From Candidatus Daviesbacteria bacterium (GTDB lineage Bacteria > Patescibacteriota > Microgenomatia > Daviesbacterales > UBA10151), in NCBI GenBank assembly GCA_016184225.1, contig JACPDA010000004.1:134800-198799 (forward strand): a stretch of DNA of 64,000 nt. Direction: 5' to 3'. How positions within the stretch are numbered: position 1 is the first letter of the stretch; every line of letters starts with the position of its first letter. Positions 7,756 through 32,046 of the stretch are shown piece by piece. The notes beneath the pieces are model-generated. The model saw only the letters and a list, made by a program, of their open reading frames with translations. It had not been told where the DNA came from and did not search any database. The position numbers and the translations under genes are program-made.

Positions 7756-8916
7756 TTAATTTCTTTCGTGATGAAATAATTTCCAAAGCAGCAGTATAGG
7801 TATCGCTAGCAGGATATTAATAATTATCAGCGCCCTAAGCGGTCCTATCTTATCAGCAAATAATCCAAGACTGAAAGACACAACACCAAATAAAATACTC
7901 CCTGCTAAAGAATTAATTGAGCCCAAAGTTGCTCTTTGTTCATCACTAAATTCTTTTTGAAGCAAACTATTTTTTGCAACCTCACTTGAGCCATAAGCTA
8001 GCGATGTGGCAGACATAATCGCGGGTGAAGCAATGGTTGGAAAAATTAAAGCCAATAGGTTGAGTAATCTACTAACTATGCTGTTTATAATTAAAGTATT
8101 GAGTGCTTTTAGTTTTTGAATAATTGGGCCGGCAAAGTAAAAGCTAATTGATCCGCCAATAAAACTAAATGCTCTGGCTACGCCTACTGCCCACAGCGGC
8201 CAAAGTGAGTTTATAAAAATTGGCTGGAACTGAAAACCTGATTCACCTAGAGCAAAACCTGTTGCGGATGTGATACTTAATAATTTAAGTCTGTAATTTT
8301 TTCTGAAAAGACCTAAAGCTTCTTTAAGATGTGAGTAAATATTCCCGGATTCATTAATATACTTCCGTGTTTCTACTAATCCTAAACTTATCATTACTAA
8401 AACAATATTGGGAATGACTGAAAGCCACATCACTAAAGATAGAGAGATGTTAGCTATAAAACCGCCTATAACAGCACCAATAGCCAGCGCAGCTTGCTCT
8501 GTTGAACTGACTTTGCCGAGATACCGGTGGTACTTATCAGTTGTTTGTTCTTCGGCTAAGGTGTCGTAAAGCAAAGCATTGTTATTGCCGCTAAAAAAAG
8601 ACCTGGCGAGACCTTCAAAAATAGCCCCAATTACTAAAATAAGATAGGAATGACCTAAAGCATAGAAAATGGTTGTAAGCAGAAGTGATAATGCTCCCAA
8701 AACAACTGTCTTCTTCCTGCCGATCATATCTGAAAATATGCCTGTTGGAATTTCAAAGATAGCTGAGGAAATAAAGGTTATGGAAAAAATACTCATAGCC
8801 AAAGCATAGGATCCGGTTATTTTAGCAAAGTAAATAACTAAAATAGCGGAGTATAGGTGAAAACCTATTAGAAAATTAAATATAGACAAAAGTTTAATAT
8901 TTTTATGAATTGGCAT
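7756..8916 (-). CDS. MFS transporter
   Basis: 386 aa, 12 TM. MFS-like motif GRKKTVVLGA after TM2. Confidence 0.7.
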   Translation of the reverse strand: MPIHKNIKLLSIFNFLIGFHLYSAILVIYFAKITGSYALAMSIFSITFISSAIFEIPTGIFSDMIGRKKTVVLGALSLLLTTIFYALGHSYLILVIGAIFEGLARSFFSGNNNALLYDTLAEEQTTDKYHRYLGKVSSTEQAALAIGAVIGGFIANISLSLVMWLSVIPNIVLVMISLGLVETRKYINESGNIYSHLKEALGLFRKNYRLKLLSITSATGFALGESGFQFQPIFINSLWPLWAVGVARAFSFIGGSISFYFAGPIIQKLKALNTLIINSIVSRLLNLLALIFPTIASPAIMSATSLAYGSSEVAKNSLLQKEFSDEQRATLGSINSLAGSILFGVVSFSLGLFADKIGPLRALIIINILLAIPILLLWKLFHHERN

Positions 8917-27241: not shown

Positions 27242-28210
27242 ATGGAAAAAGCGATATTAAAAACACTTATTTATGCCGATATTTTTGATTATCCCTTAAA
27301 AATTAACGAAATCCAGAAATGGCTAATAGGTAAAAAAGCAACACTTAGACAGGTTGAATCGGCCATAAGCCGGTTAGTTAAAAATTCCAAGTTAAAAGTT
27401 CAAAGCGGTCATTATTTTTTGCCGGGGAAAACGGGTTTAGTGATGCAAAGAAAACGCCGGGAGAATCAGTCTGTTGAGTATTTCCGAAAAGCAAATATGC
27501 TCTGCCAAATTTTAAAAATTATCCCCTGGGTTAAATTGACAGGAATCTCCGGAGGCTTAGCTTTAGGTAATGCTTCTAAAAAAGATGACATAGATCTTTT
27601 TATCGTTACTGCCAGAAATCGCTTGTGGATTTCCCGCCTGCTGGCTTTAGGTGTATTGTCTCTGACGGGGCAAAGAAGAAAAGTTGGGGAAATGGGTAGA
27701 AAGATTGCCGGAAAGTTGTGTATTAATATTTTACTCGAAGAAGATAGATTAGAGCAAGAGAGTAAAGATATCTTTGTTGCACATGAGTTGTTACAGATGA
27801 AGGTTTTATGGCAAAGAGATGGGATTTATGTAAAGTATCTGGGAGACAATTCCTGGGCCTTTGAGTTTTTACCAAATTGGGTGGGTGTTGGGACAGTTCG
27901 TTTGGTCGCAAAAAAACGTTCGTACGGTAGAGACTTACTCACTTGTGAGGATTTTGTGAAAAGCCATGATAGTAAATCATTGAGTCAATCAGCACAAAAT
28001 CCTCAACATTTTTTGATTGACTCAAACTTCACTGTCCTTATTTGTGATTTATTAGAAAAACTGGCTAAATGGTGGCAGCTAAAGATCATGCAGGAGCCAC
28101 AAGGGATGGAGCGGATAGAAGATGGGGCGCTTTATTTTCACCCGCAGGACTGTAGGCTGCGGATTCTTTCTGAATACCAGCGGCGGATTAAAAAACTTAG
28201 CACCCCTTGA
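27242..28210 (+). CDS. Nucleotidyltransferase-domain protein (Pol beta superfamily), hypothetical
   Basis: NTase motif GISGGLALGNASKKDDIDLFIV (G[SG]x9-13 DxD). Contains an in-frame copy of the 1474-1563 hairpin repeat at 27947-28015. Confidence 0.5.
   Translation: MEKAILKTLIYADIFDYPLKINEIQKWLIGKKATLRQVESAISRLVKNSKLKVQSGHYFLPGKTGLVMQRKRRENQSVEYFRKANMLCQILKIIPWVKLTGISGGLALGNASKKDDIDLFIVTARNRLWISRLLALGVLSLTGQRRKVGEMGRKIAGKLCINILLEEDRLEQESKDIFVAHELLQMKVLWQRDGIYVKYLGDNSWAFEFLPNWVGVGTVRLVAKKRSYGRDLLTCEDFVKSHDSKSLSQSAQNPQHFLIDSNFTVLICDLLEKLAKWWQLKIMQEPQGMERIEDGALYFHPQDCRLRILSEYQRRIKKLSTP
27947..28015. repeat. In-frame hairpin insertion (GAGGATTTTGTG ... CACAAAATCCTC) in the nucleotidyltransferase CDS; copy of the intergenic repeat at 1474-1563
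   Basis: 12-bp perfect inverted repeat. Flanking CTCACTTGTGAG and GCACAAAATCCTCAACATTTTTTG match 1474-1551. Reads as LLTCEDFVKSHDSKSLSQSAQNPQHFL. Confidence 0.75.
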
Positions 28211-28249
28211 CAAGTAGTGCTAGATTTTGGTATAAATTGGTCCACATTT

Positions 28250-28567
28250 ATGGTCAAAGCTCAAAAAGGCGTTACAAAAGTTTCCATCAAGCCTTTGATG
28301 GGTTATGTGTTGGTGCAACCTTCTGAGGCAGAAAGCAGGACTGCTTCCGGTATAATTCTTCCAGAAAGTGCCCAAGAAAAACCAGCCCAGGGGATAGTTT
28401 TAGCAGTTGGTGATGATATGGTATTTGAAAACGGCAAAGTTTTGAAAGCTTCCGTAAAGCCGGGAGATAAGGTGGTTTATAAAAAATGGGGCGGAGATGA
28501 AATCAAAGTTGACGGGAAAGAATTAAAGTTAGTAAAATTCGACGACCTGATGGCAATATTGGAATAA
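28250..28567 (+). CDS. groES: Co-chaperonin GroES
   Basis: Typical GroES sequence IKPLMGYVLVQPSEAESRTASGIILPESAQEKPAQGIVLAVGDD. Start MVKAQKG chosen within the tool ORF 28217-28567. Confidence 0.85.
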   Translation: MVKAQKGVTKVSIKPLMGYVLVQPSEAESRTASGIILPESAQEKPAQGIVLAVGDDMVFENGKVLKASVKPGDKVVYKKWGGDEIKVDGKELKLVKFDDLMAILE

Positions 28568-28569
28568 AT

Positions 28570-28938
28570 ATGGGAAAAAAGGTGGAAACAGAAGCAGAAT
28601 TAGCTAGTCAATATAGACCCTTTGCTGTAAATCGCCTTCATACCGAGAGAGGAGATACAGGTACTCTTATGATTTTTACTGGTATAGTTGGGACTGGAGG
28701 CGTTGTAATAGCTGGAGTATCATATATTGCTGATAGGTATTTATCCCATTTAGAAGGTTTAGTGCCACAAGTTTTAGATGGTATTTCAAAGGCTGGAATA
28801 GGTGTGGGTGTCGCAGTCGCTACTGTAGGGTTTGGCATATCAGGTGCTTGTATAGTGGCGCTTCGGGAGAATATCAAGGATTCTTTAGTTGAAGGTAGAA
28901 AACTAGATGCATGGACTAGAATTAGCAGGAGAAAATAA
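28570..28938 (+). CDS. Small hydrophobic hypothetical protein inserted between groES and groEL
   Basis: 122 aa. Gly-rich TM segments. Tightly packed: ATG 2 nt after the groES stop, and its stop 2 nt before the groEL ATG. Confidence 0.45.
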   Translation: MGKKVETEAELASQYRPFAVNRLHTERGDTGTLMIFTGIVGTGGVVIAGVSYIADRYLSHLEGLVPQVLDGISKAGIGVGVAVATVGFGISGACIVALRENIKDSLVEGRKLDAWTRISRRK

Positions 28939-28940
28939 GA

Positions 28941-29633
28941 ATGGCTAAAATTTTAAAATTTAGAAGTAATAATATTGAAGCTTTAATAAGATGGGTCAAG
29001 AAAAACGGGGCTTGGAATAATAGCCACACAATTTTTGTCTGTATTAATTGCAATAAGTCTTTCTCTGGTGCCCCCTCAGCGAAAGCTAAGTTTTGCTCAA
29101 AGATTTGCTATTACAACAATATGAAACAAAGAAGAGGTGCAATTACTTCTCATTGGAAAGGCGGCATAAGCGAAGGCAATCGATGCCCAGATTGCCACAA
29201 GTCAATTAGCTATGCTTCAAAGCGATGTAAACCATGTGCAGTAAAATTGATGCCTCATATGCATATTACAGACAGACCCTGGTTAAGAGAGCCGGAGGCG
29301 ATCAGAAAGGCGCTAAGAAGACGTCCAGTTTCATCTCTGGAAGCAAAGTTTCAAGAGATTATAAATAAGAATAACTTACCTTATAAGTATGTTGGCAATG
29401 GCAAATTTTTTATCGAGCGTAAAAACCCTGATTTCATAAACATTAACGGGGAGAAGAAAGCTGTTGAAGTGTATGCCAGAAAACATAAAGAAAAATTAAG
29501 GAATCTTAGTATTGAAGAATGGAAAAAAGAGAGACAAGTTATTTTTGCGAAATATGGTTGGGAAATTATTTTCTTTGATGAAGTACAGTTAACTGAAAAT
29601 AATGTTTTAGTCACTCTAAAAGGAGGAAAATAA
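28941..29633 (+). CDS. Chimeric ORF: first 7 codons of groEL (MAKILKF) fused to a Cys-rich HNH-like endonuclease
   Basis: HNH-like pattern C-x2-C...C-x3-C...H-x9-N-x-C-x2-C-H...C-x2-C. C-terminal PD-(D/E)XK/Vsr-like segment [22 protein letters not shown]. Flanked by direct repeats. Confidence 0.55.
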
Positions 29634-29640
29634 AATTTCT
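28962..29640 (+). mobile_element. About 0.68 kb insertion in the 5' end of groEL carrying an HNH-like endonuclease ORF, flanked by 17-18 bp direct repeats
   Basis: Left repeat GCTAAAATTTTAAAATTT at 28944-28961; right repeat TCTAAAATCTTAAAATTT at 29638-29655. Joining codons 1-7 at 28941-28961 to 29656 onward restores the canonical GroEL N-terminus [18 protein letters not shown]. Confidence 0.6.
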
Positions 29641-31248
29641 AAAATCTTAAAATTTGATTCTGAGGCAAGAGAGAAATTATTAAAGGGTATTAATACCTTG
29701 ACTGAAGCTGTGGCTACCACACTGGGACCTAAAGGCCGCAATGTAGCTTTGGATAAAAAATGGGGAGCGCCGAATGTAGTACACGACGGAGTAACTGTAG
29801 CTAAAGAAATAGATTTAGAAGATCCCTTTGAAAATATGGGAGCCCAGCTTTTGAAAGAAGCAGCCAGTAAAACTTCTGATGTGGCCGGAGACGGTACCAC
29901 CACTGCCACAATTTTGGCCAAAGCGATCGTTAACGAGGGCTTAAAAAATATCCAAGCCGGCAGCAATCCCATGATCCTAAAGCATGGTATTGAAAAAGCA
30001 GTGATTGTTTTGGTGGAAGAGCTTAAGAAAATGAGTAAGAAAATTGCTTCCCAGGAAGAAGTCGCCCAGGTAGCCACTATTTCTGCTGCAGATTCCCAGA
30101 TTGGTAACTTAATAGCCGAATCCTTACAAAAAGTGGGTAAAGACGGGGTGGTTACGGTTGAGGAAGGCAAAACCATGGAGATGAGCGTGGATTATAAAGA
30201 AGGGATGGAGTTTGATAAAGGCTTTGTGTCCCCGTATTTTGTGACTGATACGGATAAGATGGAATCTTCTATTGAAGATGCCTGTATTTTAATTACCGAT
30301 AAAAAGATATCTTCGGCTGCTGATTTAGTGCCATTCCTGGAAAAATTTGTTCAAGTTAGTAAAAACCTGGTTATTATTGCCGATGAAGTGGAAGGTGAGG
30401 CCTTAGCGCTTTTGGTAGTTAATAAACTGCGGGGGACATTTAATGTTTTGGCAGTAAAAGCCCCGGGTTTTGGTGACCGGCGCAAAGAAAGCTTAGAAGA
30501 TATTGCTATTTTAACCGGCGGCGCAGTTTTGTCTGAAGATACTGGTAGAAAACTTGAGTCAGTGGAGATGGATGAGCTGGGTCGGGCCGGCCGGGTAACT
30601 TCCAATAAAGACAATACTTTGATTGTGGATGGCAAAGGCACAAAAGCTAAGATTGAAGCCAGAATTTCCCAGATTAAAAGAGAGCTGGCCGGCTCTGATT
30701 CCGAATTTGATAAAGAAAAGCTGCAGGAGAGACTAGCAAAGCTGACCGGCGGGGTAGCAGTTATCAGTGTGGGAGCTGCCACAGAAGTTGAGCTAAAAGA
30801 GAAAAAAGAAAGAGTAATTGATGCAGTGGCTGCCACAAAAGCTGCCATAGAAGAAGGGATTGTGGCTGGTGGAGAAGTAGCCCTGCTTCGGGCAGGCAAA
30901 GCGCTGGATTCTGTGGTAGCTAGCGGTGAAGAAGCAGTTGGAGTAGAAATAGTCAAAAGAGCCCTGGAACAGCCTTTTAGGACGTTGGTGAAAAATGCCG
31001 GTATGGATGATGGAATTGCGTTGTCTAAAGTCATGGCCAGCCAGGGCAATATGGGGGTTGATGTATTAGATGGCGAAGTTAAAGACTTGGTAAAGGTTGG
31101 TATTATTGATCCGGTGAAGGTAGCCCGTTCTGCTTTGCAGAATGCAGCTTCAGTAGCGGTCATGGTGATGACAACAAATTGTCTCGTAACAGACGCAAAA
31201 GAGCCTGAGAAACAACAAATACCAACTGGTGGTATGCCAGAATACTAG
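29635..31248 (+). CDS. groEL: Chaperonin GroEL (60 kDa), 5' end displaced by an insertion
   Basis: Conserved [21 protein letters not shown], full GroEL length. The in-frame upstream stretch [20 protein letters not shown] has no ATG; the nearest candidate starts are ATT at 29635 or TTG at 29698. The original ATG plus 6 codons sits at 28941-28961. Confidence 0.8.
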
Positions 31249-31262
31249 AGTTTAGTATAAAT

Positions 31263-31661
31263 ATGACTGAGAAAGTACCTGAAAATCCTACTGATGTTTT
31301 TAGCCTTTTGGATGCACTTTGTGAGGAAGATGGTACTTCTCCGGCTAAGCGTGTAAAGCAGGTGGTTAGTGGGATAAGTAGAGTACATGGTCTGGTAAGG
31401 GATCCGGGAGGGAAATTTACTGTTCTGGGGATTGACAAGTTTGACGGTTCGGATTGGGTGGAAGGAAAATTTGATTCACCAGAGGAAGCGTTATCTGCGG
31501 CACGGCGTAGGACAAGTGAGAATAAGCAATTGGCCAGTAGCGCTGATATTGCCACTGTTTTTTATGCCTACAATTCCGAGGGTGTTTACTTGGGTGGTGA
31601 CACTTGGGATGAGGAGGAACGGAGGCTCTATGAGGAAAGCCAAGGTAAAGCTAACCCCTAA
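31263..31661 (+). CDS. Hypothetical protein
   Basis: 132 aa acidic ORF with no recognisable motif. Confidence 0.35.
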   Translation: MTEKVPENPTDVFSLLDALCEEDGTSPAKRVKQVVSGISRVHGLVRDPGGKFTVLGIDKFDGSDWVEGKFDSPEEALSAARRRTSENKQLASSADIATVFYAYNSEGVYLGGDTWDEEERRLYEESQGKANP

Positions 31662-31680
31662 TTTCAGTTCTATTACTTCC

Positions 31681-32046
31681 GTCATTCTGGTAAGTGAGTG
31701 AAACGAATGCACCCAGAATCTTATCAAGGAATATAATAGTTTTATGTATGTTTACATAATGGCTAACAGTAGACCTACCATTTATACAGGAGTAACCAGC
31801 GATCTAATTAGGAGAGTATATGAACATAAGCAGGGATTTATTGAGGGGTTTACTAAAAAGTATCATCTGTATAAACTAATTTACTACGAAGTCGTAGAAG
31901 GACAAATGGAAGCTATTATTAGAGAGAAACAGATTAAAGATATGAATAGGGTAGAGAAATTAGAGATGATCAAAAAATTTAATCCCGATTTTCAGGATCT
32001 TTACCCGCAGATTATTTAAGAACGATTCTGGACAAGCCAGAATGAC
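31681..32046 (+). mobile_element. Full-length GTCATTCTGG...CCAGAATGAC element carrying a GIY-YIG (YhbQ-like) ORF; putative master copy of the MITE-like elements
   Basis: Left terminal hairpin GTCATTCTGGTAAGTGAGTGAAACGAATGCACCCAGAATC (31681-31720). Right terminal hairpin GATTCTGGACAAGCCAGAATGAC (32024-32046). GIY-YIG ORF 31744-32019 lies between them. Confidence 0.7.
31744..32019 (+). CDS. GIY-YIG nuclease family protein (UPF0213/YhbQ-like)
   Basis: 91 aa. GIY-YIG core [28 protein letters not shown]; paralog of the CDS at 7469-7741. Confidence 0.75.

Follow-up and report, generated by a model that had tools for sequence, protein, structure and literature searches.

Free-standing endonuclease genes, Vsr-like or GIY-YIG, have been described between the halves of "fractured" genes, and it was proposed that the intruding element's 3' end makes the initiator codon of the downstream part, with overlaps of 6–69 bp (Dassa et al. 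2009, PMC2677866). Here we consider a 64,000-nt stretch of DNA from Candidatus Daviesbacteria (assembly GCA_016184225.1, contig JACPDA010000004.1, positions 134,800–198,799 of the forward strand; hereafter, the window), in which an endonuclease gene stands between the first codons of groEL and a second, slightly changed copy of these codons opening the intact gene. We believe, with a probability of about 0.8 and judging by sequence comparison, that this is a free-standing Vsr-like homing endonuclease gene inserted at codon 7 of groEL, and that GroEL is restarted from a Shine-Dalgarno (SD) sequence and an ATT codon supplied by the element.

As in the fractured genes, a free-standing Vsr-like endonuclease gene is located in a conserved gene and overlaps the downstream part by its 3' end (the SD lies in the last codons of the endonuclease, and the ATT adjoins or overlaps its stop codon everywhere), and some members of the family carry NUMOD3 modules. 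The fractured genes, however, are split in the middle, are usually healed by a split intein and yield two polypeptides, whereas here the break follows codon 7 and the donated start is ATT; the upstream part has seven codons, which are duplicated downstream, and no Pfam intein domain is found. Since only this short 5' piece is duplicated, one full-length GroEL would be made. Two further differences are that the endonuclease seems to be read from the initiation site of the host gene and that the host is the bacterial chromosomal groESL operon, instead of phage-like DNA-metabolism genes.

The second comparison is with I-Bth0305I, characterised in the study that named the EDxHD family, including the free-standing phage Hef enzymes (Taylor et al. 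2011, PMC3239194). In both cases N-terminal DNA-binding modules are followed by a C-terminal nuclease domain, and free-standing members are known. The gene of I-Bth0305I itself, on the other hand, lies within a group I intron of recA. In the motif of the window protein, E...PD...ExY...(H)K, the Lys is invariant and the His is not; the protein carries two zinc ribbons in place of NUMOD and helix-turn-helix modules, and has no detectable similarity to the solved chain.

The third are the seg and mob endonucleases of T-even phages (PMC2988022); the parts of this source considered here describe intronless homing, the nrdA/mobE overlap and the mobE-split nrdA of phage Aeh1. There, too, an endonuclease gene is situated between or inside conserved genes, a split gene can stay functional, and the endonuclease start overlaps the upstream stop (UAAUGA), suggesting translational coupling. 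These enzymes are, however, GIY-YIG or HNH proteins of phage genomes, and their split genes give two polypeptides; neither capture of a host start accompanied by duplicated first codons nor restart at an ATT is described in those parts of the source.

Thus, the principle of a free-standing endonuclease supplying a downstream start has been known since 2009. New with respect to the literature searched are the insertion in the first 1–7 codons with their duplication, leading to a single full-length protein with no intein; the capture of the initiation site of the host gene and the recurrent ATT/ATC start; and the host, a chromosomal groESL operon in the candidate phyla radiation (CPR).

Two copies of the groEL 5' end

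All features discussed below lie on the plus strand. The first gene of the operon is groES (Cpn10; 28250–28567; Pfam PF00166, E = 7.5e-30). The left copy of the groEL 5' end (28941–28961) comprises the original start and codons 2–7 (MAKILKF), and 9 nt upstream of its ATG at 28941 is the native groEL SD AGGAG (28927–28931), now used by the endonuclease open reading frame (ORF). A comparable SD is present in relatives with an empty site, L004 and L008 (loci other than the window are denoted by L-numbers). The left copy, ATG GCT AAA ATT TTA AAA TTT, aligns with the uninterrupted groEL of L245, L004 and L008 and now forms the N-terminus of the endonuclease: it is followed in frame by the endonuclease proper, 223 residues and a stop (28962–29633), so that the fusion ORF has 230 aa (28941–29633; TAA at 29631–29633). 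The split of the groEL N-terminus and the in-frame fusion of MAKILKF to a 223-aa ORF, described in the first-pass annotation, are hence as stated there.

The right copy (29635–29655) consists of the ATT start and codons 2–7 (I/M-SKILKF) of the functional groEL, which is intact, comprises 537 codons (29635–31248; Pfam PF00118, Cpn60, E = 2.9e-72) and encodes a protein 91% identical to the Daviesbacteria GroEL in L004. The frame is +1 relative to the endonuclease ORF and reads ATT (29635) TCT AAA ATC TTA AAA TTT GAT TCT GAG... to 31248.

The two copies agree at 18 of 21 positions. For the direct repeats of 17–18 bp reported earlier, the cited 18-mers match at 16 of 18 positions, while the maximum in 30 shuffles is 14. 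A repeat search stretches the direct repeat to 35 nt with 80% identity and a spacing of 694 nt (28927–28961 vs 29621–29655). The upstream part of this similarity, an SD and an A-rich spacer, is probably generic; in L165 the upstream initiation region differs, whereas the downstream one is identical to that of the window.

The closest uninterrupted allele is found in L245, whose GroEL belongs to the same 90% identity cluster as that of the window. In this locus groES is followed by an unrelated 104-aa ORF and then by groEL, which reads ATG GCT AAA ATA TTA AAA TTT GAT TCA; the empty-site sequence around the insertion point is ...ATGGCTAAAATATTAAAATTTGATTCAGAAGC... In the alignment with the L245 allele, the left copy agrees up to TTT, and the right copy agrees from TCTAAAAT onward. 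Both the junctions and the uninterrupted allele thus agree with the proposal of the first-pass annotation that an endonuclease-encoding element was inserted after groEL codon 7.

As direct repeats of the groEL 5' end border the insert (694 bp) on both sides, its precise excision would restore an intact gene, and it had been suggested that a self-splicing intron or a similar element is removed at the RNA level to yield an ATG-start groEL mRNA. We consider this highly improbable. A permissive Rfam covariance scan of positions 27500–32000 at E ≤ 10 yielded only three chance-level matches to unrelated families and none to group I, group II or other introns. The ORF takes up 672 of the 694 inserted bases, leaving no room for a ribozyme core. 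Around the 3' junction, the RNA folds no more stably than shuffled sequence (z = 0.01); no structure stands out at this place, and occlusion of the new SD was rejected on the same grounds. L003, L087, L088 and L090 retain a decayed upstream remnant or none at all, and splicing would thus not give back an intact groEL at these loci; in all occupied loci, moreover, a conserved SD and start codon at the correct spacing make it unnecessary. An intein was likewise rejected, since the insert ends in TAA, GroEL goes on in the +1 frame, and no Pfam intein domain is present. Thus, the endonuclease gene is embedded neither in an intron nor in an intein.

Initiation sites of GroEL and of the endonuclease

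The replacement SD of groEL, GGAGG (29622–29626), absent from the first-pass annotation, is located within the Leu-Lys-Gly-Gly codons of the endonuclease and is separated from the ATT at 29635 by 8 nt. We directly read nine distinct occupied junctions, that is, eight and that of L095. In all nine, the endonuclease ends with (C/T)T(A/G) AA(A/G) GGA GGn, 8 nt before the codon replacing the groEL ATG. This codon is ATT in eight of the nine, L087 having GTT instead; ATT is also present in three further loci (L165, L247, L249). GGAGG with the 8-nt spacing is present in all occupied groEL loci examined, and an in-frame GTG inside GGAGGTG also occurs in L003, L087 and L247. As the TAA just 5' of GGAGG closes the GroEL frame, ATT is the only start-like codon before the conserved N-terminal residues.

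The GroEL consensus xK(I/Q)LKF is held by the downstream copies, and all occupied loci read have Phe at position 7 there. Drift is seen, in contrast, in the upstream remnants (MAKTLKF, MAKILKS/N/T, MANILKS, MTDQLRI), and it shows what appears to be relaxed constraint. Codons 2–21 of groEL, upstream of the first TTG, differ between the window and L165 by three synonymous changes and one conservative change, and NCBI annotates the window GroEL (MBI2196194.1) as a 537-aa protein starting with MSKILKF, that is, from the ATT. Taken together, the retained consensus, the upstream drift, the coding-like change in codons 2–21 and the NCBI call indicate that the downstream copy is likely the translated N-terminus of GroEL. 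From these comparative data we infer that GroEL is translated from the ATT at 29635 via the SD in the last codons of the endonuclease. Of the two non-canonical starts considered in the first-pass annotation, ATT or TTG, the former is thereby supported, and the latter is not.

The TTG in question (29698) is the beginning of a mechanical ORF call, and a start there would remove 21 residues. One could then suppose that this groEL copy is disabled or truncated, and that a second intact groEL is located elsewhere, the inspected 64 kb being a part of the genome. This seems to us very unlikely, as the residues ahead of the TTG are conserved, the changes there being mostly synonymous, and match the GroEL N-termini of relatives; moreover, the frame of 537 codons is unbroken, with 91% identity to orthologues, the arrangement is kept in many lineages, and no second groEL is present within the 64-kb window.

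Alternatively, a programmed +1 frameshift near the endonuclease stop could produce an endonuclease–GroEL fusion, GGAGG being a stimulator. In prfB, an SD-like sequence precedes the frameshift stop codon, and here also the GroEL frame is +1 to the endonuclease in all loci and an SD-like sequence precedes the stop. Nevertheless, the would-be shift codons differ (AAA TAA, TTC TAA, TCC TAA), as does their distance from GGAGG, whereas the spacing from GGAGG to ATT is a constant 8 nt; besides, an N-terminal extension of 230 residues on each GroEL subunit is hard to square with ring assembly. We give this alternative, also as an explanation of the ATT, almost no weight.

A strong SD followed by AUU is known from infC, where AUU is a genuine bacterial initiation codon that serves autoregulation by IF3. 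The difference is that here ATT/ATC recurs specifically downstream of one mobile endonuclease family.

Codon 2 of groEL (29638–29640 in the window) encodes Ser (TCT/TCA) or Pro (CCT) in the occupied alleles, in place of Ala (GCx). ATG GC is replaced by ATT TC or ATT CC at the downstream junctions of the window, L001, L003, L084, L089 and L114, and Ser, as TCx or AGY, is frequent at this codon in phage relatives. Possible reasons are N-terminal processing, the context of the start site or target immunity. A fixed "ATTTC" end of the element was rejected, as codon 2 may be Ser (TCx or AGY), Pro or Ala.

At the other end of the element, among the 42 family members, the window, L084, L165 and nine others have the endonuclease fused after seven groEL codons. 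In other cases, the fusion has a longer linker (MAKQLKLKNVNM-IRP..., which in L003 has become MTDQLRI by decay); in L089, the remnant is a separate mini-ORF (MAKQLKFVQYSEIRANII*) 6 nt ahead of the endonuclease GTG start; and in L087 and L088 no remnant is visible, the endonuclease ATG being situated at the position of the groEL ATG, a few nucleotides after groES. At no locus whose upstream junction was compared did we find an initiation region belonging to the endonuclease itself. Hence, the endonuclease is apparently always read from, or coupled to, the resident initiation region.

The same layout is observed in unrelated genes. Relatives of the nuclease domain with 40–73% identity were found in many contigs lacking the groEL context. 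The downstream genes, where identifiable, encode phage tail proteins aligned from about profile positions 5–13, hence the endonuclease is again at the extreme 5' end of a gene. In L114, the upstream copy, ATG GCT CAT TAT TGG TTA C, opens a mini-ORF of 12 codons, the TAA of which overlaps with the ATG of the endonuclease, and after the endonuclease stop the sequence resumes as ATT TCT CAT TAT TGG TTA C CA...; an exact-pattern search of IMG/VR for the empty L114 target allele gave no match. In L108, MAEL is fused to the endonuclease upstream, and ATC GCT GAA CTT follows downstream.

We compared GGAGG-anchored starts of ORFs of at least 100 codons directly after the endonuclease with those elsewhere in the same contigs and the window. 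Directly after the endonuclease, 24 of 28 starts are ATT (17), ATC (6) or ATA (1), compared with 4 of 26 elsewhere (Fisher p = 3e-7). The replication in an independent set from IMG/VR is weaker (8 of 13 new junctions vs 12 of 54, p = 0.014), and one of these eight non-AUG junctions (L191) is probably really ATG. As far as these sequences tell, the layout is a property of the endonuclease family and not of groEL. The duplicated 5' stretch measures 12, 19, 21 and 22 nt in different loci, and this speaks against a transposase-like target duplication of fixed length, which was rejected.

Two further observations may be added. Two elements that differ in their targets share similar DNA immediately rightward of the left junction (L089:1788–1800, TACAGTATAGCG, and L114:2467–2480, TAATGTATAGGT), which may represent a conserved left end of the element. 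In the phage-like contig L099, the gene after the endonuclease-adjacent one also seems to have an SD-anchored ATC start (position 2197), so that non-AUG starts may be more widespread in endonuclease-bearing phages.

The endonuclease and its family

A search with the insert protein retrieved about 40 full-length homologues with 58–86% identity, all from metagenomes or CPR metagenome-assembled genomes (MAGs). The region presumed to bind DNA (29040–29237) contains two zinc-ribbon-like motifs formed by C34, C37, C52, C56 and C82, C85, C96, C99, all eight Cys being invariant in 42 sequences. The first-pass annotation saw an HNH-like H..N..CxxCH pattern in the protein. The HNH assignment is not supported: a Pfam scan of the insert protein gave no domain match, including HNH, and the His of CxxCH is not conserved, the homologues mostly having Gln there. 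Weak PHROGs matches (E about 2e-4) over the Cys-rich region are to families annotated as HNH endonucleases.

The other part of that description, a PD-(D/E)XK/Vsr-like C-terminus, stands. The nuclease domain occupies 29283–29630, and among the structure searches only the fold search was informative, placing it with Vsr-like catalytic domains. Candidate catalytic residues are E134 (29340), D164 (29430), E176 (29466), H182 (29484) and K183 (29487). Across 74 relatives, E134, D164 and K183 do not vary, and the conservation of E176 is 99%, while position 182 is His in 51 and Tyr in 18. The predicted fold is Vsr/EDxHD-like; since K183 is invariant, H182 is variable and no invariant acidic residue follows, the catalytic motif appears closer to a PD-(D/E)xK variant.

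NUMOD3 DNA-binding modules are carried by 36 of the 74 relatives, and five weakly match DUF559. The window protein itself combines a nuclease fold with separate, presumed DNA-binding modules. The nuclease-domain family comprises 998 cluster representatives at E ≤ 1e-10, and in the 150 best family matches the domain is at or near the C-terminus. A tblastn search with the nuclease domain against 50,697 cultured phage records produced no match. The dN/dS (nonsynonymous to synonymous rate) ratio of the endonuclease is 0.083 (window vs L165), pointing to purifying selection.

In the public record of a Candidatus Daviesbacteria MAG, the window copy (HYU45_01130) is a 170-aa hypothetical protein begun at an internal Met, the fusion with the first seven groEL codons being missed. 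Gene callers on other contigs have shortened the endonuclease (L249) or begun groEL at the GTG inside the SD (L003, L247).

Distribution of the element and the surrounding operon

A GroEL scan of species-representative genomes yielded 80 loci, and none of them contains the endonuclease insert. The closest insert-less relatives by GroEL identity are L004 (91%, Daviesbacteria), L005 (88%), L006 (87%), L007 (82%) and L008 (75%). Of 17 junctions inspected, 15 read ATG GCx AAA (MAK...); in L006 the sequence is ATG GCA GCA AAA, and L011 is mis-registered. The first-pass annotation had allowed for relatives with the same uninterrupted sequence, making the MAKILKF match coincidental; the situation is the reverse, the closest relatives having an insert-less groEL with an ATG start.

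All full-length homologues of the endonuclease with a readable context are located between groES and groEL. The occupied loci are the window, L001/L085, L003, L084/L086, L087, L088, L089, L090, L165, L247 and L249, and the same site is occupied in L095 by a more distant relative with a different N-terminal half. L246 was set aside as an error-prone assembly, because its groEL itself is in three pieces. Thus, presence is sporadic at one precise site of a conserved gene, the empty sites being those of L004–L008 and L245.

The inter-lineage identity of the endonuclease is flat at 64–72%, while that of GroEL is 65–83%, and in several pairs the endonuclease is the more conserved of the two. This decoupling of divergence, together with the existence of empty sites, points to horizontal spread of the endonuclease rather than strict co-divergence with the host, and it provides some indirect support for self-copying of the element; it is not a proof.

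In one case (L247/L248) the endonuclease has decayed, being broken by a 98-nt insert, while groEL with its SD and ATT is intact. Hence, the endonuclease can decay while the ATT-start groEL persists. The insert (L247:2169–2266, identical in L248) is richer in GC, lies in the nuclease domain between ...GKFFI and IEKKNPDF, shifts the frame and forms three hairpins (RNA minimum free energy –39.2 kcal/mol, z = –5.05). It has no Rfam match and could be a miniature mobile element or an RNA element.

These data bear on the alternative that the gene is a domesticated ex-endonuclease, now an immobile and host-beneficial component of groESL, e.g. modulating GroEL translation or binding DNA. Strong purifying selection (the dN/dS above), an inter-lineage conservation on a par with GroEL, the intactness of the copies examined with one exception, and expression from groEL's own initiation site, probably under heat-shock control, would all fit domestication. 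Conversely, its presence is patchy and the closest relatives lack it, the catalytic residues are fully conserved, close relatives of the nuclease domain (60–71% identity) occupy the 5' ends of unrelated phage genes in the same layout, and the decayed copy accompanies an intact groEL. On balance, domestication appears rather unlikely to us.

For a free-standing homing endonuclease, the following scheme may be proposed. The endonuclease would be read from the native SD and ATG of groEL as an N-terminal fusion (MAKILKF and 223 residues). GroEL would be read from the ATT, with a near-native N-terminus (Ser2 for Ala2), either directly at the strong SD or by ribosomes terminating on the endonuclease ORF. 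The endonuclease, with its two zinc ribbons for DNA binding and the Vsr-like nuclease, would cut the uninterrupted groEL near codons 1–8, and repair of the break from the occupied allele, with groES and groEL as homology arms, would spread the element. Here we infer cleavage and homing, as well as the GroEL N-terminus, from comparison of sequences. At the first insertion, the duplicated codons might have arisen by one-sided homologous repair with illegitimate joining on the left, which is a guess.

Several points weigh against this scheme. ATT is a weak initiator in model bacteria, while GroEL is normally abundant, and a second groEL outside the inspected 64 kb would change the picture. The EDxHD motif is partial, with His182 in 51 of the 74 relatives and no invariant terminal Asp or other acidic residue after it, and neither the single sequence nor two profiles gave a sequence-level match to any solved structure. 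The scheme does not by itself provide for the duplication of the 5' codons at the first insertion (12, 19, 21 and 22 nt in different loci). Finally, an endonuclease as conserved across lineages as GroEL is unusual for a purely selfish gene and fits domestication too.

As for the choice of ATT, the weak start could tie translation of the host gene to ribosomes ending on the endonuclease ORF, thus shielding this ORF from decay. The strict version of this idea, full dependence of GroEL on an intact endonuclease ORF, is weakened by L247/L248, where the endonuclease is interrupted and groEL retains its SD and ATT. Alternatively, the change of ATG GC to ATT TC/CC might take a part of the enzyme's own target out of the occupied allele.

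The spacer between groES and groEL contains one more gene, the 122-aa ORF (28570–28938), which we characterised by homologue search and hydropathy. It is intact, lies outside the endonuclease element and has two hydrophobic segments (about aa 31–52 and 76–97). Its description as a hydrophobic ORF wedged in before the groEL start is accurate, and it is a real but orphan ORF: a search of 5.8 billion proteins gave a single homologue, and this one is from the same organism (L164, with 100% identity to the window). In relatives, the ORFs found at this position have 104 aa in L245 (2172–2486), 125 aa in L001 (3637–4014), about 125 aa in L086 (2118–2500) and at least 127 aa in L165 (1–384), and are shorter in L006 and L008. 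By BLASTP they and the 122-aa ORF are mutually unrelated, and homology to them was rejected. The 122-aa ORF is thus judged to be independent of the endonuclease element. In these Microgenomates, lineage-specific ORFs of about 70–130 aa are found in the spacer, which looks like a hypervariable slot in an otherwise conserved operon.

Upstream of groES, a CIRCE-like inverted repeat, TTAGCAC-N13-GTGCTAG (28197–28223), overlaps a TTGACA. The 64-kb window contains a single copy of it, and the closest relative has a nearly identical one (L245:1770–1796). CIRCE elements are linked to HrcA-type heat-shock control, and hence the endonuclease is probably co-transcribed under this control; groES, the 122-aa ORF, the endonuclease and groEL would probably form one heat-shock transcript. 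At the locus, no internal promoters or terminators exceed the shuffle expectation, and no terminator separates the genes.

Two other possible nuclease genes were observed nearby. About 500 nt downstream of groEL in the window, a 91-aa ORF (31744–32019) resembles by eye a small GIY-YIG nuclease-domain protein, and about 2 kb downstream of the occupied groEL locus of L003, a gene (8218–8723) has weak Pfam matches to LAGLIDADG homing endonucleases.

A bolder generalisation is that the large CPR/phage family of small endonuclease genes (about 1000 clusters at E ≤ 1e-10) is specialised for insertion into first codons, captures host initiation and holds the host gene "hostage" by a portable SD and a deliberately weak ATT/ATC restart. 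We consider it speculative and unlikely; if true, translation of a host gene, here the essential GroEL, would depend on an intact endonuclease ORF, and this would guard the selfish gene.

If the homing endonuclease reading is correct, a selfish endonuclease gene can inhabit a highly conserved, essential bacterial gene without an intron or intein, by duplicating a few 5' codons, taking the resident ribosome-binding site and donating a new one. The strong enrichment of ATT/ATC starts after genes of this endonuclease family provides a concrete signature that is easy to test. It also poses an annotation problem, as gene callers shorten the downstream genes or miss the fusion, the window endonuclease being annotated as 170 aa. 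The locus would offer a natural system for studies of non-AUG initiation and translational coupling, and it would extend what is known of homing endonucleases in CPR bacteria beyond introns of rRNA and tRNA genes to a housekeeping operon that codes for proteins.

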